Origin: an uncultured bacterium
GTDB lineage: Bacteria; Acidobacteriota; HRBIN11; JAKEFK01
Length of the DNA stretch: 64,000 nt
Direction of reading: 5' to 3'
Assembly (NCBI GenBank): GCA_963777505.1
Contig: CAVZQN010000004.1
Span: forward strand, 1,344,001-1,408,000
Part shown: piece by piece, positions 18,936 to 62,957 of the stretch
How positions within the stretch are numbered: position 1 is the stretch's first letter
Layout of the letters: each line of letters opens with the position of its first letter
The notes under the pieces: generated by a model
What the model was told of the DNA's origin: nothing
What the model saw: the letters and a program-made list of their open reading frames with translations, nothing else
Databases searched by the model: none
Program-made: the position numbers and the translations under genes

Positions 18936-19432
18936 TGTCAGACCGTCAAATGGATATAAATCTCGAGGAATTAAGAGAACTCATCAGATTGCTTCGCGAA
19001 AGCAATGTCAGCGAATTTGAGTTACAGAAAGCAGATTATCGTGTTCGAATTAAACATGGCGTTATTGTTGAAACGACGCAAGATGTAATCACTCAACAGG
19101 TAGGGGTTGCGAAACCTTCGAACGGACAGGATGCAACTTCCACACAAACGGAACAAACGCCTCCGGAGACCGCTGCAGCGCCCGAAGAAGCAACTCAAGA
19201 AGTGCGCTCGCCTATGGTTGGCACGTTTTATAGATCATCAAGTCCTGGTGCTTCCGCTTTTGTTGAAGTCGGAGATGTAATTCATAAAGGTCAGGTAATT
19301 TGCATTATTGAAGCCATGAAAATTATGAATGAAATTGAATCAGATATTGAAGGCGAAGTTCTCAAAGTCCACATCTCAAACGGCCAGCCTGTTGAATTCA
19401 GCGAAATTCTTTTCACAGTTAAGTCAGCTTAA
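18935..19432 (+). CDS. accB: Acetyl-CoA carboxylase biotin carboxyl carrier protein
   Basis: SPMVGTFYR, EAMKIMNEI biotinylation motif. Confidence 0.96.
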   Translation: MSDRQMDINLEELRELIRLLRESNVSEFELQKADYRVRIKHGVIVETTQDVITQQVGVAKPSNGQDATSTQTEQTPPETAAAPEEATQEVRSPMVGTFYRSSSPGASAFVEVGDVIHKGQVICIIEAMKIMNEIESDIEGEVLKVHISNGQPVEFSEILFTVKSA

Positions 19433-19519: not shown

Positions 19520-20905
19520 ATGTTTAACAAAGTTTTAGTTGCGAATCGCGGTGAAATAGCACTTCGCATTATCATTGCATGCAAAGAATTAGGGATCCGC
19601 ACAGTCGCGGTGTTTTCGGAAGCTGACAGACATTCGTTACCCGTGCGTTTTGCAGATGAGGAAGTTTGTATCGGTCCCTCAGAAAGTGTGAACAGTTATT
19701 TGAACATTCCTAATATCATTTCCGCTGCGGAAATTACCGGTGCTGATGCAATCCATCCTGGTTATGGTTTTTTATCGGAGAATGCGAATTTCGCAGAGAT
19801 TTGTGAAACGTGTCACATAAAATTCATTGGACCAGCGCCCCATGCAATTCGCATGATGGGTGATAAAGCAATGGCACGCAAAATTGCTCAGGAGGCTGAT
19901 GTCCCGATCATTCCTGGTTCGGAAGGAATTGTGGACACTGAAGACGATGCCCTGAAAGTGGCTGAGCAACTCGGTTTTCCAGTCATTTTAAAAGCAACAG
20001 CGGGTGGCGGCGGTAAAGGGATGCGAGTTGTTCACAATCCTGCTGAGCTTGCAACCGCTTTTCGCATGGCGCAACGTGAAGCAGCAAACGCGTTTGGTGT
20101 CCCGGAGATCTATTTAGAAAAATATTTGGAACGTCCGCGTCATATTGAGTTTCAGATTCTGGCAGATGAACACGGCAACATTATTCATCTTGGTGAACGG
20201 GAATGTTCGATTCAGCGCCGTCATCAAAAAATTATGGAAGAAGCTCCATCACTTAGATTGGATCCCAATCTTCGGTTAAAGATGGGTGAAGCAGCCATAA
20301 AAGTTGCACGCGCGGTAAATTACCAGAACGCAGGGACTGTCGAATTCCTGTTGGATCGTCACGGCAAATTTTATTTCCTCGAAATGAATACTCGAATTCA
20401 AGTCGAGCATCCTGTTACTGAAATGATCACCGGTCTGGATCTTGTTTATTTACAGATTCGAATTGCAGCAGGCCGTGAGCTTGCCATCCGGCAGGAACAG
20501 GTAGAGTGGCGCGGTCATAGCATTGAGTGCCGAATCAATGCTGAGGATCCATTAAGTTTTATGCCATCTCCCGGACGTGTTACTGCGTTTCATCCTCCTA
20601 GCGGCCCAGGAGTTCGTGTTGATACAGCAGCTTATGCAGAAGGTGTGATCCCTCCTCATTACGATTCCATGATTGCAAAGGTCATTGTGCATGGACCGAA
20701 TCGTAAAGCTGCGATTTCCCGGATGAGACGTGCATTAGAAATGATGATCGTTGAAGGAATTAAGACGAACATTCCGTTGCATCACAGGATTTTGCACGAT
20801 GAAGATTTTGTTCGCGGCAATATCGATACAAATTTCATGCTTCGATATGATCTGAGACAGCGTTCCCGTTCTGCAGTCTTTTCTGAACCCGCCATCCGCA
20901 CCTAA
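19520..20905 (+). CDS. accC: Acetyl-CoA carboxylase biotin carboxylase subunit
   Basis: [48 protein letters not shown]. Confidence 0.97.
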
Positions 20906-20926: not shown

Positions 20927-21545
20927 ATGAATTTTGAAACACCATTTCTCTATCCTGTTCTCGATGACACTCGAAGCGTTAACCTAAAGCAGGATGCTCT
21001 GGAAATCATTCGTGCAGGCGCTAAAATTTTTCAGATCCGTGCAAAAAGGTTAACCAATCGCGAAATGTTTGACGTTGTGCAAAGCATTCTCCCGCATTGC
21101 ATCGAGCCTGGCGTTTCCCTCATTGTAAATGACCGTGTAGATGTTTGTCTTGCAAGTCGTGCATCAGGTGTTCATTTAGGACAGGATGATTTTCCCGTTC
21201 CGGAAACAAGGAAACTGTTGCCAGATGCAATCATCGGACTCTCAACACACAATCTGAATCAGGTCACGTGCAGCAAACGATTTACCGGTGGATTACATTT
21301 CAATAGGACCTGTTTTTCCAACTACCTCGAAAATGAATCCCGATCCTGCTGTTGGAATTTCATTCTTGCAGCAAGCCCGATCGATGACTACCAAACCAAT
21401 CGTTTGTATTGGGGGAATTCAAGCAGCGACTATTCCTGATCTTATAAATGAAGGCGCAAATGGTATCGCGGTGATTGGAGAAATCTACAATGGCAATGAT
21501 ATTTTCAACTCAACCAAACGATTGCTACAATTGATAAAAAAGTAG
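20927..21545 (+). pseudogene. thiE: Thiamine-phosphate synthase, split by +1 frameshift near 21266 (probable sequencing error)
   Basis: [26 protein letters not shown] in one frame; [18 protein letters not shown] in the next; removing A21266 restores [13 protein letters not shown]. Confidence 0.88.
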
Positions 21546-46620: not shown

Positions 46621-48249
46621 ATGTTACAGGAACGCACAGGATTAAACTTCGAAGATCTAGGCCAACACATTCGAGCAGCCTGTGAAAGAGTTGACTCATT
46701 ATCAACTCAAAGAGGCGGCTTTCAGCAGCAAGAAAAACTCTCCGAGGCTTTTGAAGACCTTTTCGTTTTATTAGAAGAGCTTCGTCTTGTCGAAAAAGAA
46801 TTGCGTGTTAAAGATGAGGACTTGATGTCCATGCGCGAGATTATGGACATTGAGCGAGAACGGTATCAAGAACTTTTTGAACATGCTCCCGATGCTTATT
46901 TGTTAACTGATCCTTATTTTCGGATTCAACAGTTTAATTTCTCATCAGCTGAACTCTTTCAAATACAAAATGAGGGACTCCTTGGCTTAACACTGATGTT
47001 ATTTATAGATGAATTGGATCATAAGGTTTTGCGGGAACAGATATCGAACTTAAAAGAAAAGAAAATTATAAAAGGGATCGAGCTTCGTCTTCAACCCCAA
47101 AAAGGTTCTGTGATTTATGCATTGATTACAGTTGGAGCGATCCATAATCCTGAAGGCTCGCTTACAGGGATCCACTGGTTTCTGCGCGATGTAACAGCAC
47201 AAAAGGAAGCTGAAAAAGCATTACAACTGAGTGAAGAAAGATTCCGGTCTATTGCTGCATCCGCGAGAGATGCAATCATTGTTGCCGATGACAAAAGTAC
47301 AATTCTTTCCTGGAATAAAGGTGCGGAACAAATTTTCCAGTTTTCTGAAAATGAGATGATCGGAAAGCCTTTGGATTCTCTAGTATCGGAACGATTTAAG
47401 GAAAGCGGAAAAGGTCTTCAACTCTCACATATTTTGCAAATCGTTGGCAAAACCTCAGAAATGTCAGGAATGAAAAAAGACGGCACCGATTTTCCTATGG
47501 AAATATCTCTGTCTGCATGGCATGCAAATGGAAATGATTATTACACCGGAATTATTCGGGATATTACTGAAAGAAAACAAGCGGATGAAACACGGATCCG
47601 CCTGTTGGAACGAATTCTTTCAGGTCAGGAAGAGGATCGTAGATGGATTGCGCGTGAACTCCATGATGAAACCGGACAATCCCTGAGCGCATTACTTGTT
47701 GGACTTCGCATCATTGAAGAGGCGAGAACTTTGAAAAAAGCAAAACTGGAGGCAAGCCGGCTTCGCAGTATTACAGCGCAGACGCTCGATGATGTTGGAA
47801 GACTCGCTAAAGGATTGCGGCCAATCATTCTGGATGACTTAGGCTTGATCGTAGCATTGAAAAGGCATGTATCCGACTTTGCACGCTCTTTCAATATCTC
47901 GATCGATTTCAAAAGCCGGGGTGTTGACTCAGAACGGCTTCCTCTGACCGCTGAAACTGCATTGTTCCGTATTTCACAAGAGGCCCTGACAAATATCGCA
48001 AAACATTCAGGGGCCAAAAATGTACATTTTTTTCTAGAGCAAAATGAAAATGAAATCTTATTATCAATTGAAGATAATGGCCGTGGATTTGAAGTAGAAA
48101 AAGCATTGAAAGCATCAACGGCATCCAATCATCTTGGAATTCATGGGATGCGCGAACGTGCTTCATTATTGGGAGGCACCTTATTTTTTGAATCATCACC
48201 GAACAAAGGTACAAAAGTTCTTGTTCGACTTCCAAAAGATGGTTTGTAA
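46621..48249 (+). CDS. Cytoplasmic PAS-PAS sensor histidine kinase (HisKA_3)
   Basis: Two PAS/PAC modules; EDRRWIARELHDETGQ; QEALTNIAKHS; DNGRGF; GIHGMRER; no TM. Confidence 0.93.
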   Translation: MLQERTGLNFEDLGQHIRAACERVDSLSTQRGGFQQQEKLSEAFEDLFVLLEELRLVEKELRVKDEDLMSMREIMDIERERYQELFEHAPDAYLLTDPYFRIQQFNFSSAELFQIQNEGLLGLTLMLFIDELDHKVLREQISNLKEKKIIKGIELRLQPQKGSVIYALITVGAIHNPEGSLTGIHWFLRDVTAQKEAEKALQLSEERFRSIAASARDAIIVADDKSTILSWNKGAEQIFQFSENEMIGKPLDSLVSERFKESGKGLQLSHILQIVGKTSEMSGMKKDGTDFPMEISLSAWHANGNDYYTGIIRDITERKQADETRIRLLERILSGQEEDRRWIARELHDETGQSLSALLVGLRIIEEARTLKKAKLEASRLRSITAQTLDDVGRLAKGLRPIILDDLGLIVALKRHVSDFARSFNISIDFKSRGVDSERLPLTAETALFRISQEALTNIAKHSGAKNVHFFLEQNENEILLSIEDNGRGFEVEKALKASTASNHLGIHGMRERASLLGGTLFFESSPNKGTKVLVRLPKDGL

Positions 48250-48274
48250 CAATCGAGCGATTGAGAAAAAATAA

Positions 48275-48913
48275 ATGGCAAAAATTCGCATTCTGATCGT
48301 TGACGATCACACTCTTTTTCGTTCCGGTTTGCGCATGCTGATTGGCGAACGCTCAGACATGGAAGTTGTCGGAGAAGCATCCGATGGTGAAGAAGCTCTT
48401 ACGTTGGCGAAAAAGCTCTCGCCGGACATCGTTCTCATGGATATTACGATGCCAGGGAGCGGCGGCCTTGTTGCAACAGAGAAAATTCGTGAAAATTGTG
48501 AGAAAACGCGAATCGTTATTCTCACAATGCATGAAGATCCCGTTTATGTGCGCTCCGCATTGGCAGCAGGAGCAACCGGTTATATTGTCAAAAAAGCAGC
48601 TGATTCTGAATTGATTTCAGCGATTCGGGCAGTCAACCACGGACGAACTTTCATTGATTCTTCCCAGGCGGAAGATACGCTATTTCCAGCAAATGGAAAA
48701 CGGAAACATGCACACGGCCAACTGAGCGAGCGGGAGTATCAAGTTTTAAAACTCCTCGCTCGCGGTTACACACATCACCAGATAGCCGAAGAAATTTCGA
48801 TCAGCGTTAAAAGCGTGGAAACATACCGCGCCCGCATGACCAAAAAACTAGAACTCCATAGCCGTGCCGATCTAATTCGTTACGCGCTGGAGACTGGTTT
48901 ACTTACAAGGTAA
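48275..48913 (+). CDS. NarL/FixJ family response regulator
   Basis: IVDDH, VLMDITMP, LSEREYQVLKL...KSVETYRAR. Confidence 0.94.
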   Translation: MAKIRILIVDDHTLFRSGLRMLIGERSDMEVVGEASDGEEALTLAKKLSPDIVLMDITMPGSGGLVATEKIRENCEKTRIVILTMHEDPVYVRSALAAGATGYIVKKAADSELISAIRAVNHGRTFIDSSQAEDTLFPANGKRKHAHGQLSEREYQVLKLLARGYTHHQIAEEISISVKSVETYRARMTKKLELHSRADLIRYALETGLLTR

Positions 48914-49512: not shown

Positions 49513-50577
49513 ATGCCAGCAGAAACTGTGCCATACGGGCGCATAACACAGCGTGCTCCTGCAGTTAAAGAAATTCACATTTTGTGGATTACAGCCGGCT
49601 TGGGCTGTGATGGCGATTCAGTCGCAATCACAGGCGCAACGCAGCCTAGCATCGAGGATGTAATTCTTGGTGCAATTCCAGGCCTTCCGAAAGTTCATTT
49701 GCACAATCCGGTCCTTGCCTACGACGTAGGTGATGCTTTTATGAAACCGTTTTGGGACGGTAAAGAAGGAAAACTCGATCCGTTTGTTCTTGTAGTAGAA
49801 GGATCGATTCCGAATGAAAAGATTAAAAGCGAAGGATATTGGGCGGCTCTTGGTTATGATGAGAAAACAGGGCAGCCAATTACTACAAATCAATGGATCG
49901 ATTGGCTTACGCCAAAGGCACTTGCTGTGGTCGCGATCGGGACTTGTGCAACTTACGGTGGAATTCATGCAATGGCTGGCAATCCTACCGGGGCAATGGG
50001 TCTTGCTGATTATTTGGGTTGGAATTGGAAGTCGAAAGCAGGAATCCCAATTGTGAATGTGCCTGGATGTCCGGTTCAACCTGATAATTTCATGGAAACT
50101 GTCCTTTATCTACTGTATCAAGCTGCAGGGTTATCTCCCATGATTCCTCTGGATGAAGCGGGACGGCCAACATGGCTCTTTGGAAAAACGGTTCATGAAG
50201 GATGCGATCGTGCTGGCTATTATGAACAAGGAGATTTTGCAACAGAATATGGTTCCCCAAAATGTATTGTGAAACTCGGATGTTGGGGACCTGTAGTCAA
50301 TTGCAATGTTCCGAAACGTGGATGGATGAATGGTGTTGGTGGATGCCCTAATGTCGGTGGAATTTGTATTGGCTGTACGATGCCAGGATTTCCGGATAAG
50401 TTTATGCCATTCATGGATGAGCCTCCCGGCGGAAAATTATCTTCTGCTACGAGCGGTTTATATGGACGTGTAATCCGATCACTTCGAAAAATTACAAACT
50501 CAACTCTCAATCAAGAACCGAAATGGCGGCATCCCCGTCCTGAACTAACAACCGGTTATCGGCCGAAATCGTATTAG
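49513..50577 (+). CDS. hhyS: Group 1h [NiFe]-hydrogenase small subunit
   Basis: GLGCDGD (Asp for second proximal-cluster Cys), GTCATYGG, PGCP, HEGCDR, CIGC; no Tat signal. Confidence 0.93.
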   Translation: MPAETVPYGRITQRAPAVKEIHILWITAGLGCDGDSVAITGATQPSIEDVILGAIPGLPKVHLHNPVLAYDVGDAFMKPFWDGKEGKLDPFVLVVEGSIPNEKIKSEGYWAALGYDEKTGQPITTNQWIDWLTPKALAVVAIGTCATYGGIHAMAGNPTGAMGLADYLGWNWKSKAGIPIVNVPGCPVQPDNFMETVLYLLYQAAGLSPMIPLDEAGRPTWLFGKTVHEGCDRAGYYEQGDFATEYGSPKCIVKLGCWGPVVNCNVPKRGWMNGVGGCPNVGGICIGCTMPGFPDKFMPFMDEPPGGKLSSATSGLYGRVIRSLRKITNSTLNQEPKWRHPRPELTTGYRPKSY

Positions 50578-50587
50578 GGAGACTACT

Positions 50588-52384
50588 ATGTCAACAGCGA
50601 CTAAAACAGGATCAGAAACTCCAACTCAAAAACAAAATCTTGTTGAAATGAATTGGGATCCGATTACAAGGATTGTCGGAAGCCTCGGAATCTACACGAA
50701 AATTGATTTTGCGAACAGGCGTGTTGCTGAATGTTATAGCACTTCATCCATTTTTCGTGGATACAGCATTTTCATGAAAGGAAAAGATCCGCGTGATGCG
50801 CATTTTATTACAAGCCGTATTTGTGGGATTTGTGGAGACAATCACGCGACATGTGCAACCTATGCTCAGAATATGGCTTTTGGGTGCCGCCCTCCTGTTC
50901 TTGGTGAATGGATTGTAAATCTTGGTGAGGCAGCCGAATACATGTTCGATCACAATATTTTTCAAGACAATCTCGTAGGTGTTGATTTCTGCGAACAGAT
51001 GGTCAAGGAAACAAACCCGAGTGTTTGGGATAAAGCTCAAAAAACGGAAGCACCGAACGCCAAATTGCACGGCTATCGAAAAATTTCTGACATTATGACG
51101 GCGCTCAACCCATTTACTGGCGAATTCTATCGCGAAACTCTTCATGTAAGCCGGTACACGCGCGAGATGTTCTGTCTCATGGAAGGAAGACATGTTCACC
51201 CTTCAACACTTTATCCGGGTGGAGTGGGAACAACACCTACGATTCAGTTGTTTACTGATTATCTAGTTCGTTTGATGAAATATTGTGAATTTATGAAGAA
51301 GGTCGTACCTCTTCATGATGATCTTTTTAATTTCTTCTACGAGGCGTTGCCCGGTTATGAAGAAGTAGGACGCCGACGCGTACTTCTTGGATGTTGGGGA
51401 TCTTTCAACAATCCTAATGTGTGCGATTACACATACAAGAACATGTCCAATTGGGGACGTGGAATGTACGTGACGCCTGGTGTTGTTGTTGACGGCGAAC
51501 TTGTAACAACAGATCTGGTCGATATCAATCTGAACATTCGGATTCTACTTGGCAGTTCGTTCTACGATGGATGGGAAAATGCTGAAAAGTTTGTTAAGAC
51601 TGATCCATTGGGTAATCCTGTAGATCAAAACCATCCATGGAATCAAACCACAGTTCCGCGTCCACAAAAACGGGACTTCAATGGCAAATACACTTGGGTC
51701 ATGTCGCCCCGTTGGCTTGATCAACGCACAGGCGATCATCTTGCTCTTGATACCGGTGGTGGACCCATTGCGCGCTTCTGGGCAACTGCCAAAGCTGGAT
51801 TGGTAGACATCGGATATCTCAAAGCAACGGGAAATAGTGTAAAAATTTATCTTCCAAAAACTGCGACACTTCCTGAAGTTGAATTCGAATGGAAAATTCC
51901 AAAGTGGAGTAATGCGATTGAACGTGATCGCGCAAGAACATACTTCCAGGCTTATTCAGCAGCAGCAGCACTCTATTTTGTTGAACAAGCTCTTGCCGAA
52001 TTGCATGCAGGCAGAACAAAAACCTGGTCGGAGTTTACAGTTCCTGAGGATGCCATCGGTTGTGGATTCCATGAAGCAGTTCGTGGCGTTCTTTCACATC
52101 ATGTTGTGATTCGTGATGGTAAAATCGCGAACTATCATCCGTATCCACCGACACCATGGAATGCAAATCCGCGTGATATTTATGGAACTCCCGGACCATA
52201 CGAAGATGCGGTACAAAATACTCCAATCTTTGAAGAAAATGGTCCCGACAAATTCAAAGGCATTGACATTATGCGAGCCGTAAGAAGCTTTGATCCGTGT
52301 CTGCCTTGCGGTGTCCATATGTATCTCGGAAATGGAAAAGAAATTCAAGTTCGGCATTCTCCAACATTTGGACCGCGGCTTTAA
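50588..52384 (+). CDS. hhyL: Group 1h [NiFe]-hydrogenase large subunit
   Basis: WDPITRIVG; L1 TSRICGICGDNH; L2 SFDPCLPCGVH with cleavable tail. Confidence 0.95.
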   Translation: MSTATKTGSETPTQKQNLVEMNWDPITRIVGSLGIYTKIDFANRRVAECYSTSSIFRGYSIFMKGKDPRDAHFITSRICGICGDNHATCATYAQNMAFGCRPPVLGEWIVNLGEAAEYMFDHNIFQDNLVGVDFCEQMVKETNPSVWDKAQKTEAPNAKLHGYRKISDIMTALNPFTGEFYRETLHVSRYTREMFCLMEGRHVHPSTLYPGGVGTTPTIQLFTDYLVRLMKYCEFMKKVVPLHDDLFNFFYEALPGYEEVGRRRVLLGCWGSFNNPNVCDYTYKNMSNWGRGMYVTPGVVVDGELVTTDLVDINLNIRILLGSSFYDGWENAEKFVKTDPLGNPVDQNHPWNQTTVPRPQKRDFNGKYTWVMSPRWLDQRTGDHLALDTGGGPIARFWATAKAGLVDIGYLKATGNSVKIYLPKTATLPEVEFEWKIPKWSNAIERDRARTYFQAYSAAAALYFVEQALAELHAGRTKTWSEFTVPEDAIGCGFHEAVRGVLSHHVVIRDGKIANYHPYPPTPWNANPRDIYGTPGPYEDAVQNTPIFEENGPDKFKGIDIMRAVRSFDPCLPCGVHMYLGNGKEIQVRHSPTFGPRL

Positions 52385-52398
52385 GGCGCTGATTTCAT

Positions 52399-53268
52399 AT
52401 GCCGGATGATCGAAAACTTCCGCAGCGGATACAGCAAATCGAAGGGCTGATCTCTAAAATAGAAAGTTACGCCGACCCGGATATTCGAGCCACTGCCAGG
52501 GAACTGGTTCAGTTGCTCATGGAAGCTCATGGTGCCGGATTAGAACGCATCATGGAAATTTTATGGCAATCTGAAAACGGGGAGACACTCACCGATCAGA
52601 TTGGCCGGGATGTCATGATCGGCCCTCTCCTTTTGCTTTACGGACTCCATCCTGTTGATTTGAAAACAAGGGTGCTGAATGCACTCGATAAAGTGCGTCC
52701 CTATCTTCAATCACACGGTGGGAATGTTGATCTCATTGATATTTCCAACACCGGAGATGTACGTCTTCGATTGCAAGGTAGCTGCAATGGATGTCCGTCC
52801 TCCGCAATGACACTGAAACTTGCGATTGAAGAAGCAATTGATGAGTATGCTCCCGATGTGAATAGTTTGAGTGTGGAAGGAGTCGTGGAATCGAAGCTAT
52901 CTTCCGGCTTTGTGCCAATTCAAAAGTTGAAGATGGAAAACGAACCGCAGGGAGGGTGGAAGGAAGTAAGCGGGCTGGATGCAATCACTCAAGGAATGGT
53001 GAAAACGCTGGAAGTCAGCGGCCAGCCTGTCTTGTTTTGCCGGATTGAAGAGTCGTACTATGCATATAGTACTACATGTCCGGATTGCACAAGCACTCTG
53101 CGAGGCGCGATCCTTGCAGAACCGTCAGCCCTTACCTGTCCGGCATGTGGACAAAAGTATGACGTACTCAGAGCGGGAAGAGGCCTTGATAAACCAGCGC
53201 TACATTTAGAGCCCTTTCCATTATTAATGGAGCATGGCCGCACTAAAATTGCGCTGCCGGCGTCATAA
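52399..53268 (+). CDS. hhyE: NifU-like Fe-S protein with degenerate Rieske-like domain (HhyE type)
   Basis: VRPYLQSHGG...GSCNGCPSS; C-terminal CPDC...CPAC; directly after hhyL. Confidence 0.8.
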   Translation: MPDDRKLPQRIQQIEGLISKIESYADPDIRATARELVQLLMEAHGAGLERIMEILWQSENGETLTDQIGRDVMIGPLLLLYGLHPVDLKTRVLNALDKVRPYLQSHGGNVDLIDISNTGDVRLRLQGSCNGCPSSAMTLKLAIEEAIDEYAPDVNSLSVEGVVESKLSSGFVPIQKLKMENEPQGGWKEVSGLDAITQGMVKTLEVSGQPVLFCRIEESYYAYSTTCPDCTSTLRGAILAEPSALTCPACGQKYDVLRAGRGLDKPALHLEPFPLLMEHGRTKIALPAS

Positions 53269-53291
53269 AATTCCGGATTTCTGGTGGTTAA

Positions 53292-53936
53292 ATGAAACAA
53301 GGATTTGGAGTTCTCCGCCAATTCATAAAGGAAAAAGAACCCCAGGAGCAATGTGATCTTTGCAGCCTCGGGCTCCCCTCACAGCATCAACATCTGATCG
53401 AGCCATCATCGCGGAAAATTGTTTGCTCTTGCGATGCTTGCTCAATTCTTTTCAGCGACCAACAAGGGTCCAAATTCAGACGGATCCCCCGCGATAGCAG
53501 GATCCTCACTGACTTTCATTTAACCAACGAACAATGGGACGAGCTCCTGATTCCGATCAGCATGGCCTTTTTCTTCTTCAGCTCAATGCACAACAAATTC
53601 ATTGTTCTCTATCCAAGTCCAGCGGGAGCAACTGAATCTTTGCTTCGTTTGGATTCATGGAACGATGTTATTCAACAGAATCCGGTTCTTCAGAAAATGA
53701 ATCCGGATGTGGAAGCATTGCTTGTAAACCGGATGCCAAAAGAACCGGAATATTTTATTACACCGATCGATCAATGCTTTAAGTTGGTTGGCTTAATCCG
53801 CTCGAAATGGAAAGGTCTTTCAGGCGGCACTGATGTATGGAAGGAAATTTATCAATTTTTTGAAACGCTAAAACAAAACAGTCTTGTTCTCAACAGCGGT
53901 GACACAGCACTGAGATCAATAATAAATAATGCCTGA
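53292..53936 (+). CDS. Hydrogenase-associated DUF5947 protein
   Basis: CDLC...H...CSCDAC, YPSPAGATES, PDVEALL, GLSGG. Confidence 0.8.
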   Translation: MKQGFGVLRQFIKEKEPQEQCDLCSLGLPSQHQHLIEPSSRKIVCSCDACSILFSDQQGSKFRRIPRDSRILTDFHLTNEQWDELLIPISMAFFFFSSMHNKFIVLYPSPAGATESLLRLDSWNDVIQQNPVLQKMNPDVEALLVNRMPKEPEYFITPIDQCFKLVGLIRSKWKGLSGGTDVWKEIYQFFETLKQNSLVLNSGDTALRSIINNA

Positions 53937-55818
53937 TCTGAATTTTGATGTAGAAGGAGCTGAACCTGTTGCGTATGCTGCGTCTCCGTTGATTGCATTC
54001 AAGCTCAGGATCACTGCCGATAATGAGAACGTTACCATTCATTCGGTAATGCTGCGATGTCAGATCATGATCGAATCAACGAAGCGTCATTATGATCCGT
54101 TAGAACAGAAGCAGATGTATGAGATTTTTGGAGAACCAGAGCGCTGGAGTCAAACACTCAGAACCATGCTCTGGACTCACGCGAGTGTGGGCATCCCGCG
54201 ATTTATCGGCAGCACAGTGATCGATCTTCCAGTGATATGTACTTTCGATTTTAACGTTGCAGCAACCAAGTATTTTTATGGGCTTGAAGGCGGTGAAGTA
54301 CCGTTATCGTTTTTATTCAGTGGTTCCATTTTTTATGAAGATGAAAATGCTGCGATGCAGGTCACACAAATTTCGTGGGAAAAGGAGTCTCGTTATCGCC
54401 TTCCAGTCGATGTGTGGAAGAAGATGATGGAGCACTATTATCCAAACTCAGTATGGCTTTGTCTCAGAAAGGATATATTTCAACGCCTTTATGAACACAA
54501 AATGGAACATGGATTTGCAACATGGGAACAAGTTCTTGAAAATGTTCTTCCGGTGAAAACCGTCATGAATCTTGAATTAGTGGAAAAGATCGCAAATGCG
54601 ATTTTATATGAAGGTTATCTTCTGTATCCATACCGTGCCTCGGCTGTAAAGAACCGGCATCGATGGACTTTCGGTGCACTTTATCCGCCTTCTTACAGCA
54701 AGCTTCAAAGCGAAAACGATCCCTCTTCAATGCAAACAGAATGTATTTTGAAAGGGACGGCCAATGCTTCATTTAATGTACGGCTTCGGTTTCTGCAACT
54801 TGTTTCGCGTGAAACTGGCAATCAATCCTGGCAAGAAGCTAAAGAACAAACTTTTGAAATTCCTGAAACGAAGCTGTCTTCTTTGAATTCTAACGTCACA
54901 AGATTTCCTTTCCGTTTCGAATCGATGCAAAAACAAGAAGGGTCAGCAGTCTTGCGCTGCGAAGAGGTTCAAGGCGTAGTTGAAATTAGCGCAGAGCAGC
55001 TTGCCGATCAAGCATACAAGTTAACGGTTTGTGTTTTGAATGAGACAAATTTTGAAAATGCTGAATCGCAGGGCCGTGATGAAGCTCTAATGCATTCCCT
55101 TGTTTCAACTCATTGCATTCTCAGTGTTCGAGATGGTGAATTTATTTCGTTGCTTGATCCACCGGTAGAATTTCTAGCTTTCGCAAAATCGTGTCATAAC
55201 ATTCGAAACTGGCCTGTTCTTGCAGGAAATGAGGGAGAGCGAAGTATGATGATCGCCTCGCCCATTATTCTGTACGACTATCCACAAATTGCAGAAGAGA
55301 GCGCCGGTGATCTGTTTGATTCAACAGAGATCGATGAAATTTTAAGTCTGCGGATTCTGACTTTAACAGATCAAGAAAAGGCAGAAATGCGGCGGGTTGA
55401 CGAACGTGCACGCAAACTATTGGAAAGGACAGAATCGATTCCACCAGAACAGTTTATGAAAATGCATGGAGCGGTTCGCGGTCTCAAACGAGTAATCCGG
55501 GATCCGGATCCAAAGGAGGAGCCTGTGGATGCTAACTGGAATCCTTATGAAAGCAAACCGCCGGTTGAGAAGGTTCAAGTGTTAGGGATTGATGTTAAAA
55601 AGGGAAGTCGTGTGAAGTTGTGGCCTGTAAAAACTGCCGACATTATGGATCTTGCACTTTCTGGACGCACTGCAATCGTTGAAGCGATCGAAGAAGACTA
55701 TGACGGTGTCGTACATCTAGCAGTTATTGTTGAAGATGATCCCGGCAAAGATATGGGTGAATTAAGACAACCCGGACACCGATTCTTTTTTACACCTGAA
55801 GAAGTGGAACCATTATGA
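53929..55818 (+). CDS. Hydrogenase-associated DUF6084 protein read through into the next conserved 1h-cluster protein
   Basis: MPDLNF...FGEPERW...CTFDF; then from ATG 54565 ILYEGYLLYPYR, SPIILYDYP, DLFDSTEIDEIL, GHRFFFTPEEVEPL. Confidence 0.8.
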   Translation: MPDLNFDVEGAEPVAYAASPLIAFKLRITADNENVTIHSVMLRCQIMIESTKRHYDPLEQKQMYEIFGEPERWSQTLRTMLWTHASVGIPRFIGSTVIDLPVICTFDFNVAATKYFYGLEGGEVPLSFLFSGSIFYEDENAAMQVTQISWEKESRYRLPVDVWKKMMEHYYPNSVWLCLRKDIFQRLYEHKMEHGFATWEQVLENVLPVKTVMNLELVEKIANAILYEGYLLYPYRASAVKNRHRWTFGALYPPSYSKLQSENDPSSMQTECILKGTANASFNVRLRFLQLVSRETGNQSWQEAKEQTFEIPETKLSSLNSNVTRFPFRFESMQKQEGSAVLRCEEVQGVVEISAEQLADQAYKLTVCVLNETNFENAESQGRDEALMHSLVSTHCILSVRDGEFISLLDPPVEFLAFAKSCHNIRNWPVLAGNEGERSMMIASPIILYDYPQIAEESAGDLFDSTEIDEILSLRILTLTDQEKAEMRRVDERARKLLERTESIPPEQFMKMHGAVRGLKRVIRDPDPKEEPVDANWNPYESKPPVEKVQVLGIDVKKGSRVKLWPVKTADIMDLALSGRTAIVEAIEEDYDGVVHLAVIVEDDPGKDMGELRQPGHRFFFTPEEVEPL

Positions 55819-56312
55819 CCAACATATTGATCGCTGGAATTGGAAACATCTTTTTTGGTGATGACGCTTTTGGATGTGAAGTCGTCAAAAAGCTATATCA
55901 ACGGAAGATGCCTGAGAATGTTCGAGTTGTGGACTTCGGTATTCGTGGCTTCGATCTGGCGTATGCCTTGATGGATGATAAAAATGATTTTTCAATTCTC
56001 GTTGATGCATTGCCGCGCGGTGGAAAGCCAGGCACTCTTTACACGATTGAACCTGAAGTTGAATTGACTTCGCCGGAGGATGCCAATGTAGAGACGCATG
56101 GAATGAATCCTATGAAGGTATTTCAGCTAATTCACGCTATGGGAGGACAAGTGAAACGCGTTTTGATTGTTGGTTGCGAACCCCAAACGCTTGGACCCGA
56201 AGAAGGACTCATGGGGTTAAGTGAGCCAGTTGAGTCCGCAGTTGACGAAGCAGTTGAGCTCATTGAATCACTTGTCGAATCGATCTCAAAAGAGAAACAG
56301 TTACTAACGTAA
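55815..56312 (+). CDS. Hydrogenase maturation protease
   Basis: IAGIGNIFFGDDAFG, DFGIRG, LVDA, HGMNP, VGCEP. Confidence 0.92.
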   Translation: MTNILIAGIGNIFFGDDAFGCEVVKKLYQRKMPENVRVVDFGIRGFDLAYALMDDKNDFSILVDALPRGGKPGTLYTIEPEVELTSPEDANVETHGMNPMKVFQLIHAMGGQVKRVLIVGCEPQTLGPEEGLMGLSEPVESAVDEAVELIESLVESISKEKQLLT

Positions 56313-56339
56313 TCGTAATAATCCAAAAGGAGGAACAAC

Positions 56340-56591
56340 ATGGAAGGGAACGGATTTGGAAAAAGCTTACTGGACAACAAAGAATTTTTTGAAGCAGCTG
56401 CCGGGGTTGCAATGATTGTTGCAGGTGCAAGTATTCTGCTTGCGAATCCACAAACTCGGGAATATGTAAAAGATGGTTTAAGGGCAGTGTTTCCAAATAT
56501 GGATATCGACAAACTTGAGGATCCGCTCGCAATGGGACTTTCAACTGTGATGCCAGATTTAGAAAGGTACTTAAAACTCAGGTCGATGTAA
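56340..56591 (+). CDS. Small one-TM protein, DUF6893-like C-terminus
   Basis: AGGAGG RBS; hydrophobic AAAGVAMIVAGASILLA; ends MPDLERYLKLRSM. Confidence 0.7.
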   Translation: MEGNGFGKSLLDNKEFFEAAAGVAMIVAGASILLANPQTREYVKDGLRAVFPNMDIDKLEDPLAMGLSTVMPDLERYLKLRSM

Positions 56592-56592
56592 G

Positions 56593-57012
56593 ATGCACGA
56601 ATTAGCGCTCGCTGAAGGAATTTTAGGTGTCGCTCAAGATGCTGCTGGTGGCGAAAACATCACATCGATTCGAGTTCGAGTGGGCCGTTTGCAACACGTT
56701 ACACAAGATAGTCTTCGGTTCGCGTTCGAATTGGTAGCTCGTGATACGAACGCGGAAACAGCAACGATTGAAGTAGATCAAGTACCGATCAAATATCGTT
56801 GCAAACGATGTTCAAATGAAGGCGAAATTGAACTTCCGAATTTTAACTGCCTTTCCTGCTCTTCAAGTGAAGTGGAGATTTTATCGGGCGAGGAAATTCT
56901 TGTAGATTCTGTTGAATTACACAATGGGCAGGTAATTCGAAGGTGTGACGCGAATCTTCAGGATCTGCTCGATACGCATATCAAGGAACATCATGGAAAC
57001 GACAATCATTAA
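56593..57012 (+). CDS. hypA: Hydrogenase nickel chaperone HypA
   Basis: MHE start, CKRC...CLSC, SGEE; His-containing tail. Confidence 0.93.
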   Translation: MHELALAEGILGVAQDAAGGENITSIRVRVGRLQHVTQDSLRFAFELVARDTNAETATIEVDQVPIKYRCKRCSNEGEIELPNFNCLSCSSSEVEILSGEEILVDSVELHNGQVIRRCDANLQDLLDTHIKEHHGNDNH

Positions 57013-57554
57013 TGGAAAAATTAATTCTGCTCGCAGCAGAATTACAGTCAAGGCATTTGCCTCCGGTTTGTTATCATCTTTTGGACACGATCCAACCTTT
57101 TCCATCAGAAACCCAACCGGTGAACTTAGCTTTTGTGCCAGATGATCCTAAAAGCGCAAAACTGAAAGTGATGATTCGCGCTGATTCGATTGAAGTGACC
57201 GGGGACATTAGTAGTAAAGATCGAAAGGAGATCGAAAAAACAATGCGTGAGGATGTTTTAGAAATCGATCGATTCCCTGAAATCACTTTTGAAAGCACAA
57301 GCATCGAAGGGGAAAAGATTTTTGAAAATCAGTATCGTGTTCAAATTCAAGGAAATTTTACTTTGCATGGAGAAACTCGGCTCGAGACAATTGAAGCTCA
57401 GGTTACTGTAAATGGTGATCAGGTCCGCGCATATGGTGACTTTCCGCTACGCCAAACGAATTACGACATCAAGCTCGTTTCTGTCGCTGGAGGCACACTA
57501 AAACTGAAGGATGAGCTGAGAGTATCTTTCGATATTACAGTACAGCCGCAGTAA
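56993..57554 (+). pseudogene. YceI family protein, +1 frameshift at T-run 57131-57134 (probable sequencing error)
   Basis: METTII...SRITVKAFASGLLSSFGHDP joins VPDDPKSAKL...VLEIDRFPEITFES...GNFTLHGET...QTNYDIK when one T is removed. Confidence 0.82.
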
Positions 57555-57590
57555 CGCACGCTTACGGAGGTTGTCTCCAGAGATTTAAGT

Positions 57591-59862
57591 ATGATTCAAA
57601 GAATGCATATTCACGTTCAAGGAATGGTGCAAGGAGTCGGTTTCAGACCATTCGTATACAAACTTGCCAGGGAGCACGAGCTAACCGGCCATGTCTCTAA
57701 CAATACTCGTGGTGTGCATATAGAAGTCGAAGGAGAAGGAACCGCGATAGAAAATTTTTTGGGCGCTCTGAAAAGCCAGTCACCCCCGCTCGCTCATATA
57801 GAATCGATTCAATCAGACAACAATTTAAGTCCGATCGGATTTGAGCATTTTCAAATTGTTGAGAGTTCAAATCTCGAAGAAAGACTTGTGCGGATCTCCC
57901 CCGATGTAGGCACCTGCTTGGATTGTTTGGATGAGATTTTTGATCCAAACAGCAGGCGATATCGATATCCATTCACAAATTGCACAAATTGTGGACCCAG
58001 ATTTACGATCATTCAAGATGTTCCTTATGATCGGAAAATGACTACGATGAAATTGTTTCGTATGTGCGTTGATTGTGACCGTGAATATCACGATCCTGAA
58101 AATCGGCGTTTTCATGCTCAGCCGAACGCCTGCCCGAAATGTGGCCCGCAACTCAGATTTGTAGATCAGAGTGGAAACGTATTACACGCGGATGATGCAT
58201 TCAATGAAACGATACGTAGAATTCGAAACGGAAATATCGTTGCAATAAAAGGTATTGGAGGATATCACCTCTGCTGCGACGCGATGAATAACAATGCAGT
58301 GTCAATGTTTAAGAGCCCGAAAATTTCGCGAAGAGAAACCATTTGCATTGATGGCCGCGGATAATGAAGCGATCAGGAAATTTTGTTCAGTAAATGTTGA
58401 AGAAGAGGCGCTGCTAACTTCATATAGACGTCCGATAGTAATTTTAAGAAAGAAAGACGGATGCAACATTCCCGAAAGTGTTGCACCTAAGATTCATTCC
58501 CTCGGTTTCATGCTTCCTTACTCTCCGCTGCATCATTTGTTAATGGCTGAATTCAATAGTCCATTGGTGATGACGAGCGGCAATATTTCGGACGAACCGA
58601 TCACATATGATGATTGTGTTGCCATCGAAAGACTGGCGAAGATTGCTGATTGTTTTCTGACTCATAATCGAGAAATACACGTCCGCTGTGACGACTCTGT
58701 TGTCCGAGTTTCATCTGGTAAGCCATGCGTTATCCGCCGGTCTCGTGGTTATGCGCCTGATCCGGTGACACTTCCTTTTTCTATGTCGCTTCCAATACTC
58801 GCTTGTGGTGCTGAACTGAAAAACACGTTTTGCCTAGCAAAGCAGAATTATGCTTTTGTCAGTCATCACATTGGTGATCTGGAAAATTTCGAAACACTGA
58901 GATCATTTCAAGAAGGGATAGAGCACTTCAAAAAGCTATTCGATATCGAGCCCGAAGTGGTTGCCTATGACTTACATCCCGAATATCTATCAACGAAGTA
59001 TGCGCTCGAACTCCCCATTCCTTTGAAGATTGGTATTCAACATCATCATGCTCATGTTGCAAGCTGTATGGCGGACAACGGAATTACTGGCGATGTTATC
59101 GGCGTTGCAATGGATGGCCTCGGGTTTGGGTTGGATGGAAAATTCTGGGGTTGCGAATTCATGATTGCAAGCCTGGAGACCTTTCAGCGAGTCGCACATC
59201 TTCAATACTTGCCAATGCCGGGCGGTTCAAAAGCCATCCGTGAACCCTGGCGAATGGCTGCGACATATCTGCAACATGCATATGGGAAAGATTTCGTGAA
59301 TCTGGATTTGGACTTTTCAAAACGATTGGATTTTCAAATCTGGAAAGTGCTTGAAAAACTGCAGACACCTTTGACTTCTAGCATGGGACGTTGCTTCGAT
59401 GCTGTTTCAAGCTTGTTAGGAATCAGGGATTCCATCAATTATGAAGGGGAAGCTGCCATTGAACTTGAAATGATTGCGGATGAAAAAGAAGCAAATCGTT
59501 ATGAATTTGATATATCAGACGACAACACCACAATTGAAATAACTCCGGTAATTGTTGGCATCGTAAATGACATCCACGCCGGGATTTTGCCTTCACAGAT
59601 TTCAGCGCGTTTTCATAATGCAGTAGCAAACTTGATTGTCCGGATGGTTCTCAGAATCAGGGACAAGAATCAGTTGAACAGAGTTGCACTGAGTGGAGGT
59701 GTTTTTCAAAATACACTTCTGCTGAAAAAGACAATTGCGCTGCTGAAAGACGAACTCTTTCAAGTTTTTTTTCATCATCGTGTTCCTGCAAATGATGGCG
59801 GAATTTCACTGGGGCAAGCTGTTATCGCCGATGCGAGAATCAAGGCAGGACTTTCTATATAA
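57591..59862 (+). pseudogene. hypF: Carbamoyltransferase HypF, +1 frameshift at 58308-58310 (probable sequencing error)
   Basis: GMVQGVGFRPF, CTNCGPRF, FHAQPNAC, KGIGGYHL in first ORF; EKPFALM, QHHHAH, SSMGR, NDGGISLGQ in second. Confidence 0.92.
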
Positions 59863-59873
59863 GGAGGAAACCT

Positions 59874-60161
59874 ATGTGTTTAGCGATTCCAGGAAAAGTA
59901 ATTGAGATGCATGAATCGGAAGGAATTCTTTTGGGAAAAGTTGAGTTTGGAGGAATCGTTAAACAAGTTTGTTTGCAATATACTCCTGACGTTAAGACTG
60001 GCGAATGGGTCATTGTTCATGTTGGGTTTTCATTAAGCAAAATGGATGAAGAGGAAGCCGCTCGTACTTACAAATTGTTAGAAGAATTAAATCAGCTTTC
60101 TGAATTAGATATACCTGATATCGATTCCTCAGAAATTGCAAATATGAAGAGGGATGTATGA
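59874..60161 (+). CDS. hypC: Hydrogenase maturation chaperone HypC
   Basis: MCLAIPG, VIVHVGF. Confidence 0.95.
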
Positions 60162-61267
60162 AGTATCTGGATGAATATCGTAGTGAGGAGATTGCACAAA
60201 AAATAGTAAACGAACTTCATCGCATTGTAACTCGCCCATGGGTAATTATGGAAGTTTGCGGAGGTCAGACGCATACGATAGTGAAGTATGGATTGGACTA
60301 CCTTCTGCCTTCTGAAATTGAACTTGTGCATGGTCCTGGATGTCCGGTCTGTGTAACGTCGCTTGAAATGATTGATAAGGCGCTAGCGATCGCTCAACAA
60401 CCGAACGTAATATTTTGTTCCTTTGGCGATATGCTTCGAGTGCCAGGATCGAAAGTTGATCTATTGATCTGCAAATCACGTGGCGCGGATGTTCGAATCG
60501 TTTATTCACCGATGGATTGTTTGAAAATTGCAAAAGCGAACCCTGATAAGAAAGTTGTATTTTTTGCAATTGGATTTGAAACAACAGCTCCTGCAAATGC
60601 TATGGCAGTCTGGCATGCGAAAAATGCAGGGATTACAAATTTTTCAATTCTGGTTTCGCATGTATTGGTCCCGCCATCGATGACTGCGATTTTACAGTCG
60701 CCGATGAATCGGGTTCAGGGATTTCTGGGTCCAGGCCATGTTTGTGCTGTTATGGGATACAAAGAATATGAGCCTGTGTCTGCTCGTTATGAAGTGCCGA
60801 TTGTCATTACAGGTTTTGAACCTGTTGATCTCTTGCAAGGCACGTTGATGGTTGTGCAGCAGCTAGAATCAGGTAGATTTGAAGTTGAGAACCAGTATTC
60901 GCGCGTCATTACGCGCGAAGGAAATCGCCCTGCGCAAGATCTCGTGAACAAAGTGTTTGAAGTATGTGACCGTAAGTGGCGTGGAGTAGGTACAATTCCC
61001 AAAAGTGGTTATAAGTTGCAGTATGAATTCCGTGATCATGATGCTGAACGATTGTTTGAGGTAGAAGAAATCGATACTCAAGAATCTTCTCTTTGTATAA
61101 GCGGTCTTGTTTTAAAAGGCGTTAAGAAACCGCATGATTGTCCCGCTTTTGGAAAGGAATGCAACCCGGATCATCCTCTTGGCGCGACAATGGTATCTGC
61201 TGAAGGCGCTTGCGCGGCTTATTATACATACGGACGTCATCTTCAAAATGAAGAGGTTCACCCTTAA
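60158..61267 (+). CDS. hypD: Hydrogenase maturation protein HypD
   Basis: [36 protein letters not shown]. Confidence 0.96.
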
Positions 61268-61872
61268 TGAATCGTACCGTTTCTGAAAGCACTCGCGAAA
61301 AAATAATGCGCAAGTGCCATGAAAGCATGGAAATGAAGGAGAAATTCTTCAGCCTCTACGCAGATCAAATTGACGTTCTTACTATGGAAATGGCGAAGAG
61401 GTTTTCTGAAGGTAAGAAGCTGCTTGTAATGGGAAACGGCGGCAGCGCTTGTGATGCTCTGCATGTCGCAGTTGAATTTGTGCATCCAATCATTGAAAAA
61501 AGAAAAGCGCTTCCTGCAATTGCGCTAATGACGGATATTGCTACGATAACGGCGATCAGCAATGATCTCGACTTTTCTAAAGTCTTTGTAAATCAAATTA
61601 AACTTATGGGACAGCCTGGAGATATGGCACTTGCCATCAGTACAAGCGGCAAATCACCAAATTTGATTTATGCATTACAAGCCGCGCGAGAAAAAGGAAT
61701 GCTCACGATTTCATTTTCAGGCAAAGACGGCGGACGTCTACCGGAAGTCTCTGATCATTGTTTTACAGTTCCATCCTTTAGCATTCATCGAATCCAGGAA
61801 GTTCAAGAAACTTTGTTACATATACTCTGGGATCTAGTCCACGTAAGCATGGGTGAGGAAGACGTAATCTAA
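61267..61872 (+). CDS. SIS-domain GmhA-like phosphosugar isomerase within hyp operon
   Basis: GNGGSACDA, TAISND, STSGKS, HRIQE. Confidence 0.85.
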   Translation: MNRTVSESTREKIMRKCHESMEMKEKFFSLYADQIDVLTMEMAKRFSEGKKLLVMGNGGSACDALHVAVEFVHPIIEKRKALPAIALMTDIATITAISNDLDFSKVFVNQIKLMGQPGDMALAISTSGKSPNLIYALQAAREKGMLTISFSGKDGGRLPEVSDHCFTVPSFSIHRIQEVQETLLHILWDLVHVSMGEEDVI

Positions 61873-61889
61873 TCCTCGAAAATAAAAAA

Positions 61890-62957
61890 ATGTCAGATCG
61901 CGATGATGTTTTAAATGCGCTATTGAATTCCTGTCCTATTCCCATTACCGATTACAAAGAAATAGTTCTTGGGCATGGAAGCGGCGGAAGGCTCACACAT
62001 CAATTGATTGAAAAGATGATGCTGCCACAATTTCGAAATGATTTGCTTGAACCATTACACGATGGCGCGATTTTTTCGTTGAATGGATGTCGTTTAGCTT
62101 TCAGCACCGATTCTTATGTGGTCAGTCCAATTTTTTTTCCAGGTGGGGACATCGGTCATCTTGCGATCAATGGCACAGTGAATGATCTTTCCATGTGCGG
62201 GGCAAAGCCATTATACCTTTCTGTCGCATTTATTCTTGAAGAGGGTTTCGCGATGGAAGATTTATGGCGGATCGTTCTTTCTATGAAGAAGGCTGCAGAA
62301 GATGCGGGCGTTACATTGGTGACAGGAGATACAAAAGTTGTTGATCGCGGTAAAGGCGACAAAATTTTTATTAATACGTCCGGTGTCGGTGTCATTGAAA
62401 CAGGTGTCAACGTTCATCCAAACCGAGTACAGGTTGGAGACCAAATTCTGATCAATGGTGCGATTGCAGCACACGGAATTGCAATTCTTGCCGTTCGAGA
62501 AAATCTGGAATTCGAATCACAAATCGTAAGCGATACAGCTCCATTGAATGATCTTGTCCAAACAATGCTTAATGCCAGCCACGAAATTCATGTTCTTCGG
62601 GATCCAACTCGCGGTGGTTTGGCCAGTACGTGTAATGAAATTGCCAAACAAGCGAAGGTTGGAATTACATTGAAGGAAAACCAGATTCCGATCGCTGAAG
62701 AAACCAAAGGGGCATGTGAAATTCTTGGACTCGATCCTTTATATGTTGCGAATGAGGGTAAACTGCTGGCATTTGTTGCGCCAACGGTCGCTGATCAGGT
62801 TCTTCATGCGATGAAGAATCATCCTCTTGGTAAAGAGTCGTCGGTCATCGGAGAAGTCGTGCAGGCACATGCCGGCACAGTCGTATTAAAGACCCGAATT
62901 GGCGGCAGCCGTGTTGTAGACATGATTTCTGGCGAACAACTCCCGCGCATCTGTTAG
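61890..62957 (+). CDS. hypE: Hydrogenase maturation protein HypE
   Basis: HGSGG, TDSYVV, GDTKVV, RDPTRGG, ANEG, C-terminal PRIC. Confidence 0.96.
   Translation: MSDRDDVLNALLNSCPIPITDYKEIVLGHGSGGRLTHQLIEKMMLPQFRNDLLEPLHDGAIFSLNGCRLAFSTDSYVVSPIFFPGGDIGHLAINGTVNDLSMCGAKPLYLSVAFILEEGFAMEDLWRIVLSMKKAAEDAGVTLVTGDTKVVDRGKGDKIFINTSGVGVIETGVNVHPNRVQVGDQILINGAIAAHGIAILAVRENLEFESQIVSDTAPLNDLVQTMLNASHEIHVLRDPTRGGLASTCNEIAKQAKVGITLKENQIPIAEETKGACEILGLDPLYVANEGKLLAFVAPTVADQVLHAMKNHPLGKESSVIGEVVQAHAGTVVLKTRIGGSRVVDMISGEQLPRIC

Follow-up and report, generated by a model that had tools for sequence, protein, structure and literature searches.

The window analysed here is a stretch of 64,000 nucleotides from an uncultured bacterium (GTDB lineage Acidobacteriota; HRBIN11; JAKEFK01), taken from contig CAVZQN010000004.1 of assembly GCA_963777505.1 (positions 1,344,001 to 1,408,000). 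On its plus strand, at 49513-62957, it carries a complete group 1h [NiFe]-hydrogenase (hhy) cluster, and within that cluster, downstream of the maturation protease gene hupD, lie two small genes that we treat together as a module. One encodes a microprotein with a single hydrophobic helix, and the other a barrel protein of the YceI family that lacks a signal peptide. Most hhy clusters of Acidobacteriota, and a few in other phyla, have this module next to hupD, and the long microprotein and the leaderless YceI protein are very probably a genuine accessory pair of the hydrogenase, Hhy. The feature is real and conserved, and it hints at a function. Hydrogenases of group 1h are regarded as the chief biological sink for H2 in the atmosphere, and the Acidobacteria rank as a dominant phylum in soil. 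In the lineage of the window, hypA sits between the two module genes; in the window itself the YceI gene is split by a frameshift, as is the hypF gene that follows it:

56340..56591, plus strand: 83-amino-acid one-helix microprotein, related to DUF6893 but extended, with the helix at residues 16-34, then NPQTREYVKDGLR, and at the C-terminus MPDLERYLKLRSM.
56593..57012, plus strand: hypA (Pfam HypA, 98 bits, residues 1-108 of 139).
56993..57145, plus strand: YceI gene, 5' piece (frame A), which encodes residues 1-47 of the intact protein before a premature stop, placed by alignment with the intact proteins of two relatives, G001 and G005.
57129..57134, plus strand: one extra base that splits the YceI gene (TTTT versus TTT in a DNA alignment with G001 and G005).
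57129..57554, plus strand: YceI gene, 3' piece (frame B; residues ~47-185; Pfam YceI, PF04264, 67.5 bits against a cut-off of 23.7).
57591..58364, plus strand: hypF, 5' piece of 257 amino acids (acylphosphatase, zinc fingers and the start of the YrdC domain, by Pfam).
58294..59862, plus strand: hypF, 3' piece of 522 amino acids (the rest of YrdC and the Kae1-like domains; Pfam Sua5_yciO_yrdC profile positions 30-178, HypF_C and HypF_C_2).

The two YceI pieces together align end to end with the intact 185-amino-acid YceI proteins of G001, a same-genus relative of the window's genome (G000), and G005, a same-family relative. Frame A opens with an ATG at 56993 and stops at 57143-57145, and its product begins METTIINGKINSARSRITVKAFASGLLSSFGHDPTFSIRNPTGELSF; frame B covers Pfam YceI profile positions 33-149, and the 3' piece is 77% identical to the G001 protein and 68% identical to that of G005. 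The start codon lies 20 nucleotides inside hypA and is preceded by an AAGGAA motif. At most 16 further codons are open upstream of it (open reading frame, or ORF, 56945-57145), too few to encode a signal peptide. In both relatives the genes likewise run hupD, small ORF, hypA, YceI, hypF. The original prediction, made from the letters of the window, had described a signal-less YceI gene that overlaps hypA once its frameshift is repaired, and this description is borne out. It had also allowed for a real frameshift with decayed homologues; the homologues in G001 and G005 are intact.

When one genome per species was searched with the intact YceI orthologue, relatives turned up at 64 loci, and the context of each was typed by tblastn with the proteins of the window's cluster. 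Genes of the hhy or hyp type lie on the same strand as YceI in 53 of them. In these linked loci hupD is found no more than 2.2 kb upstream of YceI in 48 cases and directly downstream in two; three gave no hupD match, and in L035 and L083 YceI is at the start of the contig. The next recognized gene downstream is hypC in 37, hypF in five, hypA in four, hupD in two and hypD in one, with none in the remaining four. Most records with a YceI locus belong to Acidobacteriota (Bryobacterales, Terriglobia, Blastocatellia, Acidoferrales and Vicinamibacterales), and one record each carries the label Planctomycetota, Verrucomicrobiota, "Deltaproteobacteria" or "Clostridia".

Genome-level sampling points the same way. 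Among the window's genome and 40 relatives, the group 1h large subunit HhyL occurs in G000, G001 and G005 only, which are exactly the genomes with a linked YceI; the remaining YceI matches in this set are unlinked paralogues. In a sample of 250 acidobacterial genomes, 10 carry group 1h HhyL. G001 recurs in this sample, which shows that the window's genome shares its phylum with the Solibacteraceae record. YceI lies 4-8 kb from hhyL on the same contig in six of the 10, one of which has two tandem copies; a seventh, G152, is identical to G005 and is linked by its locus context, and an eighth has such fragmentary contigs that linkage is undecidable. Co-occurrence of this YceI subfamily with hhySL, which the original prediction had named beforehand as a check, is therefore observed both across loci (53 of 64) and across genomes (all three HhyL carriers among the 41).

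That the arrangement is kept in two relatives and at 53 of 64 further loci lies far outside what chance would produce. A YceI gene that merely rode along with hhy clusters as a neutral passenger, with no functional tie, could account for its absence from many such clusters, but the linked loci are spread over several orders of Acidobacteriota and records labelled Planctomycetota, Verrucomicrobiota and Myxococcota, and position, strand and partner gene are conserved while the sequences diverge to 37-55% identity. We consider the passenger explanation very improbable.

The partner gene is the microprotein. In the window, the most hydrophobic 19-residue segment of the 83-amino-acid protein spans residues 16-34 (mean Kyte-Doolittle 2.0). 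Linked loci have an ORF of 64-91 amino acids directly upstream of YceI with a fixed layout: a polar N-terminus, a glycine-rich hydrophobic helix, the motif N-P-x-[VI]-R-x-[YF], a short linker, and a C-terminal P-D-x-x-[RK]-Y-x-x-x-x-M. A glycine, the P-D pair, the tyrosine and the final methionine are invariant in an alignment of 32 long forms. A hidden Markov model (HMM) of the long microprotein, built with sequences from 29 of the 53 linked loci, matches next to YceI in 48 of the 53 (46 full length and two broken by indels). Among the five linked loci without a match, two lack upstream sequence and one (L087) has a partial match. The same model gave no match in the 11 unlinked YceI loci or in six plasmid hhy loci, so that across linked, unlinked and plasmid loci the long form is found only beside YceI. 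The stop and start codons of the microprotein and YceI genes overlap or nearly abut in several loci. What had been noted in the window as a single-transmembrane protein preceding hypA is accordingly a conserved one-helix partner of YceI. AlphaFold2 modelled it alone with low confidence (mean predicted local distance difference test score, pLDDT, 64.9), giving a rough sketch with helices at 9-35, 39-52, 58-62 and 64-84.

The long microprotein shares several traits with the DUF6893 proteins of other hhy clusters: one hydrophobic helix, a C-terminal P-D-x-x-[RK]-Y-x-[KR]-x-[RK]-x-M, and a position after hupD. Unlike them, the window's protein is 83 amino acids long, stays below the Pfam DUF6893 (PF21833) cut-off (18.6 versus 24.6 bits, with a match to the C-terminal 14 residues only), and resembles two diverged DUF6893 modules in tandem. 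Two of five further long forms exceed the cut-off (L040 with 29.2 bits and L053 with 32.1) and three are below it; the L053 protein matches the DUF6893 profile twice, and that of L059 matches through its first module. To judge from these matches, the long form is a diverged DUF6893 relative, apparently duplicated, that travels with YceI. A short one-helix ORF with the same C-terminal motif follows hupD in plasmid clusters of Cupriavidus, Methylocystis and Kitasatospora. The short form exceeds the Pfam cut-off in three clusters, from Kitasatospora (a bare ORF of 34 amino acids), Blastocatellia (a bare ORF of 46) and Cupriavidus, where the match is the last 26 residues of a 65-amino-acid frame.

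Several minor observations concern the two forms. The short plasmid ORFs are at 19603-19800 in Cupriavidus pHG1 (L090), 19200-19409 in Methylocystis (L092) and 19557-19661 in Kitasatospora (L093); all three are missing from the gene tables of PLSDB, which are incomplete, and the original records may list them. Both forms occur in L039, L040, L042, L050 and L054, with a short ORF of 46-69 amino acids after hupD and a long form of 63-84 before YceI; four of these five loci are labelled Blastocatellia or Acidobacteriota, and one "Clostridia". In L067 the short DUF6893 module is found as well, at the C-terminus of a long open frame.

The fold of the barrel was examined in the intact orthologue P0002 in place of the window's broken copy. 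AlphaFold2 gave a confident model (pLDDT 91.5, predicted template modelling score 0.87), and a Foldseek search with this model returned 21 Protein Data Bank matches at E <= 0.001, all of the YceI family, with template modelling scores (TM-scores) up to 0.85. Matches with probability 1.0 and TM-scores of 0.74-0.85 include BcnA, PA0423, E. coli YceI, the polyisoprenoid-binding TT1927b and the polyisoprenoid-binding domain from Saccharophagus. Crystal structures of proteins in this family are known with bound ubiquinone or octaprenyl ligands. The hhy-linked proteins share Pfam PF04264, which all 120 listed homologues carry, and an eight-stranded barrel with a capping helix (TM-score 0.70-0.85) with the solved lipocalins of this family, namely TT1927b of T. 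thermophilus (1wub), E. coli YceI (1y0g), BcnA and BcnB of B. cenocepacia (5ixh and 5ixg), PA0423 of P. aeruginosa (7bwl), H. pylori HP1286 (3hpe) and the Saccharophagus domain (2x32 and 2x34). Unlike these, they lack a signal peptide, are only 11-24% identical to them, and have a dedicated hydrogenase-cluster context. They also have conserved motifs of their own, G-H-[ND]-P near residues 31-34 and VSVAGG...K.KDE near residues 162-174.

The difference in compartment follows the genomic context. A hydrophobic N-terminal stretch is present in none of 39 linked YceI proteins, versus 10 of the 11 unlinked ones, which have N-terminal extensions with a median of 59 amino acids. The hhy-linked YceI is leaderless and hence predicted to be cytoplasmic, so that a fold seen almost exclusively in exported proteins would also have a branch inside the cell that is linked to an enzyme of respiration. 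The 11 unlinked proteins form one clade in a quick maximum-likelihood tree, with a Shimodaira-Hasegawa-like approximate likelihood ratio test (SH-aLRT) value of 100, which nests beside hhy-linked sequences from Blastocatellia (SH-aLRT 89). Our reading, with the caveat that the tree has a midpoint root on a very long outgroup branch, is that the secreted paralogue may have arisen from the cytoplasmic, hydrogenase-linked form. The 11 unlinked loci (L044, L045, L049, L055-L058, L060, L070, L075 and L078) encode proteins 45-51% identical to the query, and no hydrogenase genes are near these leader-bearing, presumably exported paralogues. Two side observations concern copy number: genome G202 has two tandem hhy-linked YceI copies 4-5 kb from hhyL (contig C26, 12451-13616), and the 302-amino-acid protein P0011 resembles a partial-plus-full YceI tandem read as one ORF.

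Structural and phylogenetic relationships of this kind could also suggest that the barrel is a sensor of a hydrophobic ligand or a sequestering lipocalin of the BcnA type, sharing only its regulation with hhy. The closest solved structures include the antibiotic-sequestering BcnA and PA0423, and the secreted paralogue clade appears to derive from the linked one. This possibility appears quite unlikely given the tight pairing of the barrel with a membrane microprotein and its conservation within the operon across several orders and phyla. Nor does domain architecture speak for it: no informative fusion of the YceI subfamily was found among 1804 candidates, in which the single longer match at E <= 1e-10 seems to be an ORF called too long, with an ordinary YceI core inside.

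How, then, might the pair serve the hydrogenase? Pfam searches of the 15 ORFs of the cluster (49513-62957) found no match to a cytochrome b or other membrane-subunit family, consistent with what had been seen in the original prediction. A membrane or quinone interface is the most economical role for the module because a lipid-binding fold and a one-helix peptide occur together in an operon without a membrane subunit. We regard such a quinone or lipid interface as plausible but uncertain. The barrel would bind a hydrophobic isoprenoid ligand, most plausibly respiratory menaquinone, and would act on the inner side of the membrane, with the microprotein as an anchor or docking site; the two would give soluble HhySL(E) access to the quinone pool. 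A specific form of this proposal, in which the one-helix peptide is the docking point where the lipocalin draws menaquinone from the inner leaflet, to deliver it to HhyE or to the distal cluster of HhyS, is possible but more doubtful. If true, it would be the missing group 1h interface in Acidobacteriota, and the problem addressed by HucM would have been solved independently, by a lipocalin rather than a coiled-coil tube.

Two known systems give a frame for this proposal. A section of PMC6883350 describes the electron route from Hhy to the respiratory chain as still unresolved, and part of PMC10017518 describes a hydrophobic conduit for menaquinone in Huc, the group 2a enzyme of M. smegmatis. 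The proposed role of the module is like that of HucM, a non-catalytic accessory protein that provides a hydrophobic route for menaquinone in a cytoplasmic, high-affinity hydrogenase without cytochrome b (part of PMC10017518). HucM is a coiled-coil tube and scaffold whose role is supported experimentally, whereas the module contains a beta-barrel and would be a functional analogue, with no homology claimed. The cytochrome b of group 1d hydrogenases would fill the same gap, as it provides membrane anchoring and quinone reduction (a section of PMC6883350). Unlike group 1d, the hhy cluster has no haem-binding membrane protein, and its sole predicted membrane element is a single helix. The module offers two small candidates that can be knocked out for the question of how Hhy connects to the respiratory chain.

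Several observations weigh against the quinone-interface proposal. The similarity between hhy-linked YceI and solved YceI proteins is remote (profile E-value 2e-9, 15-24% identity), and the score against the E. coli-type NCBIfam equivalog NF002994 is 46.7 bits versus a cut-off of 232; judged by these profiles, the barrel is a Pfam YceI member and not an E. coli-type equivalog. The fold does not imply quinone, as antibiotic sequestration appears in the titles of the solved members 5ixh and 7bwl. YceI was not matched in two of the 10 acidobacterial HhyL genomes, nor was it found in five annotated plasmid hhy clusters of proteobacteria and actinobacteria, those of Cupriavidus, Methylocystis, M. 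intracellulare, Kitasatospora and Streptomyces fungicidicus; the only YceI-family match in those plasmid records is in Kitasatospora, about 168 kb from the hhy cluster. The module is thus common in Acidobacteriota and lineage-specific, not universal to group 1h. Since YceI is missing from some hhy clusters, it is not a general link between group 1h hydrogenases and respiration, and since the whole module is missing from some, Hhy works without it. A complex prediction from the YceI and long-microprotein alignments returned a score of 0.00, with controls not run, a result that counts on neither side of the question of binding.

The position of the module, at the border of the maturation genes and here inside them, likewise suits a role in maturation equally well. 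As a maturation or assembly helper, the module would hold a hydrophobic intermediate, shield a subunit or localize assembly at the membrane, and would take no part in electron transfer. In 50 of the 53 linked loci it lies between the protease gene hupD and hypC, hypA or hypF, and in the lineage of the window hypA stands inside it, with the 20-nucleotide overlap coupling the translation of hypA and YceI. None of the known Hyp steps, however, calls for a barrel that binds lipids; hhyE, a structural gene, and the DUF genes are on the same side of the cluster; and the short DUF6893 partner is present in three clusters of other phyla regardless of the order of hyp genes. We consider a maturation role unlikely and continue to favor a membrane or quinone interface. 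Our literature search found no paper tying YceI or DUF6893 to Hhy, with the qualification that Fig. 5B or Table S9 of Eichorst 2018 may include the gene, and no Hhy structure from cryo-electron microscopy. The portion of Eichorst 2018 that concerns acidobacterial clusters draws them with unlabelled "hypothetical" genes (PMC5900883).

The frameshifts in the window are probably assembly errors. This is likelier than decay because hypF and a thiE-like gene are also frameshifted. In hypF, a single additional base at about 58305-58310, absent from the intact gene of G001, splits the frame, and the thiE-like gene (Pfam TMP-TENI, 20927-21545), 36 kb away, is frameshifted near 21260-21285, with its C-terminal half running on in another frame. 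In the first 49 kb, the Pfam matches of the 42 remaining larger ORFs show no further split. Alternatively, the copy in the window may be a true pseudogene, with yceI and hypF both inactivated and the hydrogenase system starting to decay, a reading that concerns the state of this copy and not the function of the family. Such decay would fit the presence of two +1 insertions no more than 1.2 kb apart, one in yceI and the other in hypF, an essential gene. On the other hand, the remaining hhy and hyp genes are intact and HhyL is 95% identical to that of G001, the third frameshift lies in an unrelated gene, and, given a total of three indels over 64 kb, it is unsurprising that two fall within 1.2 kb of each other (a chance of about 0.1 by a rough estimate). 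Comparable breaks affect the microprotein and/or YceI genes of three other metagenome-assembled loci (L037, L043 and L085). We therefore view a pseudogene as the less probable explanation. Two public soil runs contain 0.07 and 0.05 of the sampled words of the window, and their read contigs span only 56777-56927, 56963-57113 and 57826-57998, with the yceI and hypF indel sites outside. We flag indel errors or early decay in this assembly for users of the window, together with its HypB-less maturation set.

The hypA gene between the two module genes has features of its own. Its product has a C-terminal extension of about 25 amino acids ending in the His-rich HIKEHHGNDNH, and this tail is conserved in G001, G005 and L059 (the HypA loci are 56593-57012 in the window, L007 2033-2452, L008 928-1347 and L059 9377-9832). 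Searches for HypB (TIGR00073) gave nothing in G000 (95.9% complete), G001 (96%) or G005 (83%), and only a score below threshold in the genome of L059. A HypA extension of 25-40 amino acids with a His-rich end occurs in exactly these four genomes. Eight other acidobacterial loci have no His-rich tail (six encode HypA of 113-115 amino acids and two are longer at the N-terminus only), and HypB, searched in the genome of only one of the eight, L040, is above the cut-off there. The His-rich tail may stand in for the nickel handling of HypB. A bolder side reading is that the His-tailed HypA and the module form one translationally coupled unit in a lineage without HypB. One generic CobW-family GTPase is encoded far off on the same contig.

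The original prediction had placed YceI where hypB usually sits. This holds for the lineage of the window; elsewhere it does not, as hypC follows YceI in 37 of the 53 linked loci and HypB is present in genomes that carry YceI. We considered and rejected a general replacement of HypB by YceI, since HypB is above the cut-off in four of five other YceI-bearing genomes.

The other genes of the cluster, all on the plus strand, are those expected of a group 1h system:

49513..50577, plus strand: hhyS, [NiFe]-hydrogenase small subunit (Pfam NiFe_hyd_SSU_C and Oxidored_q6).
50588..52384, plus strand: hhyL, group 1h large subunit (Pfam NiFeSe_Hases).
52399..53268, plus strand: putative iron-sulfur protein of the hhyE type, with NifU-like and Rieske-like domains (Pfam NifU 83 bits, Rieske 25.5 bits).
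53292..53936, plus strand: DUF5947 accessory gene (Pfam DUF5947, 226 bits).
53929..55818, plus strand: DUF6084 protein of 629 amino acids (Pfam DUF6084 on residues 1-208).
55815..56312, plus strand: maturation protease of the hupD type (Pfam HycI, 65 bits).
59874..60161, plus strand: hypC (Pfam HupF_HypC).
60158..61267, plus strand: hypD (Pfam HypD, 516 bits).
61267..61872, plus strand: SIS-domain (GmhA-like) gene, typical of hhy clusters (Pfam SIS_2).
61890..62957, plus strand: hypE (Pfam AIRS and AIRS_C).

HhyL has the motifs TSRICGICGDNH and SFDPCLPCGVH, which part of PMC5364354 quotes as the group 1h L1 and L2 motifs. It is 83.9% identical to the large subunit of Cupriavidus necator pHG1, and is the sole [NiFe] large subunit detected across the window's genome. 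No twin-arginine (Tat) leader was found in the N-terminus of HhyS, whose sequence was read directly. The cluster has the accessory set of group 1h (hhyE, DUF5947, DUF6084, hupD, SIS and hypCDEF, without cytochrome b or a Tat leader), and its gene order agrees with that of the five annotated plasmid hhy clusters. The same SIS-domain gene is found in the Cupriavidus and Methylocystis plasmid clusters. The span of the 629-amino-acid DUF6084 protein corresponds to two genes in the five plasmid clusters, DUF6084 of about 215 amino acids and a "hypothetical" of 410-480, and the long protein appears to be a natural fusion. The two genes immediately before hhyS, at 46621-48913 on its strand, encode a PAS-PAS histidine kinase of the HisKA_3 type and a response regulator of the NarL/GerE type, which are candidate regulators of the cluster.

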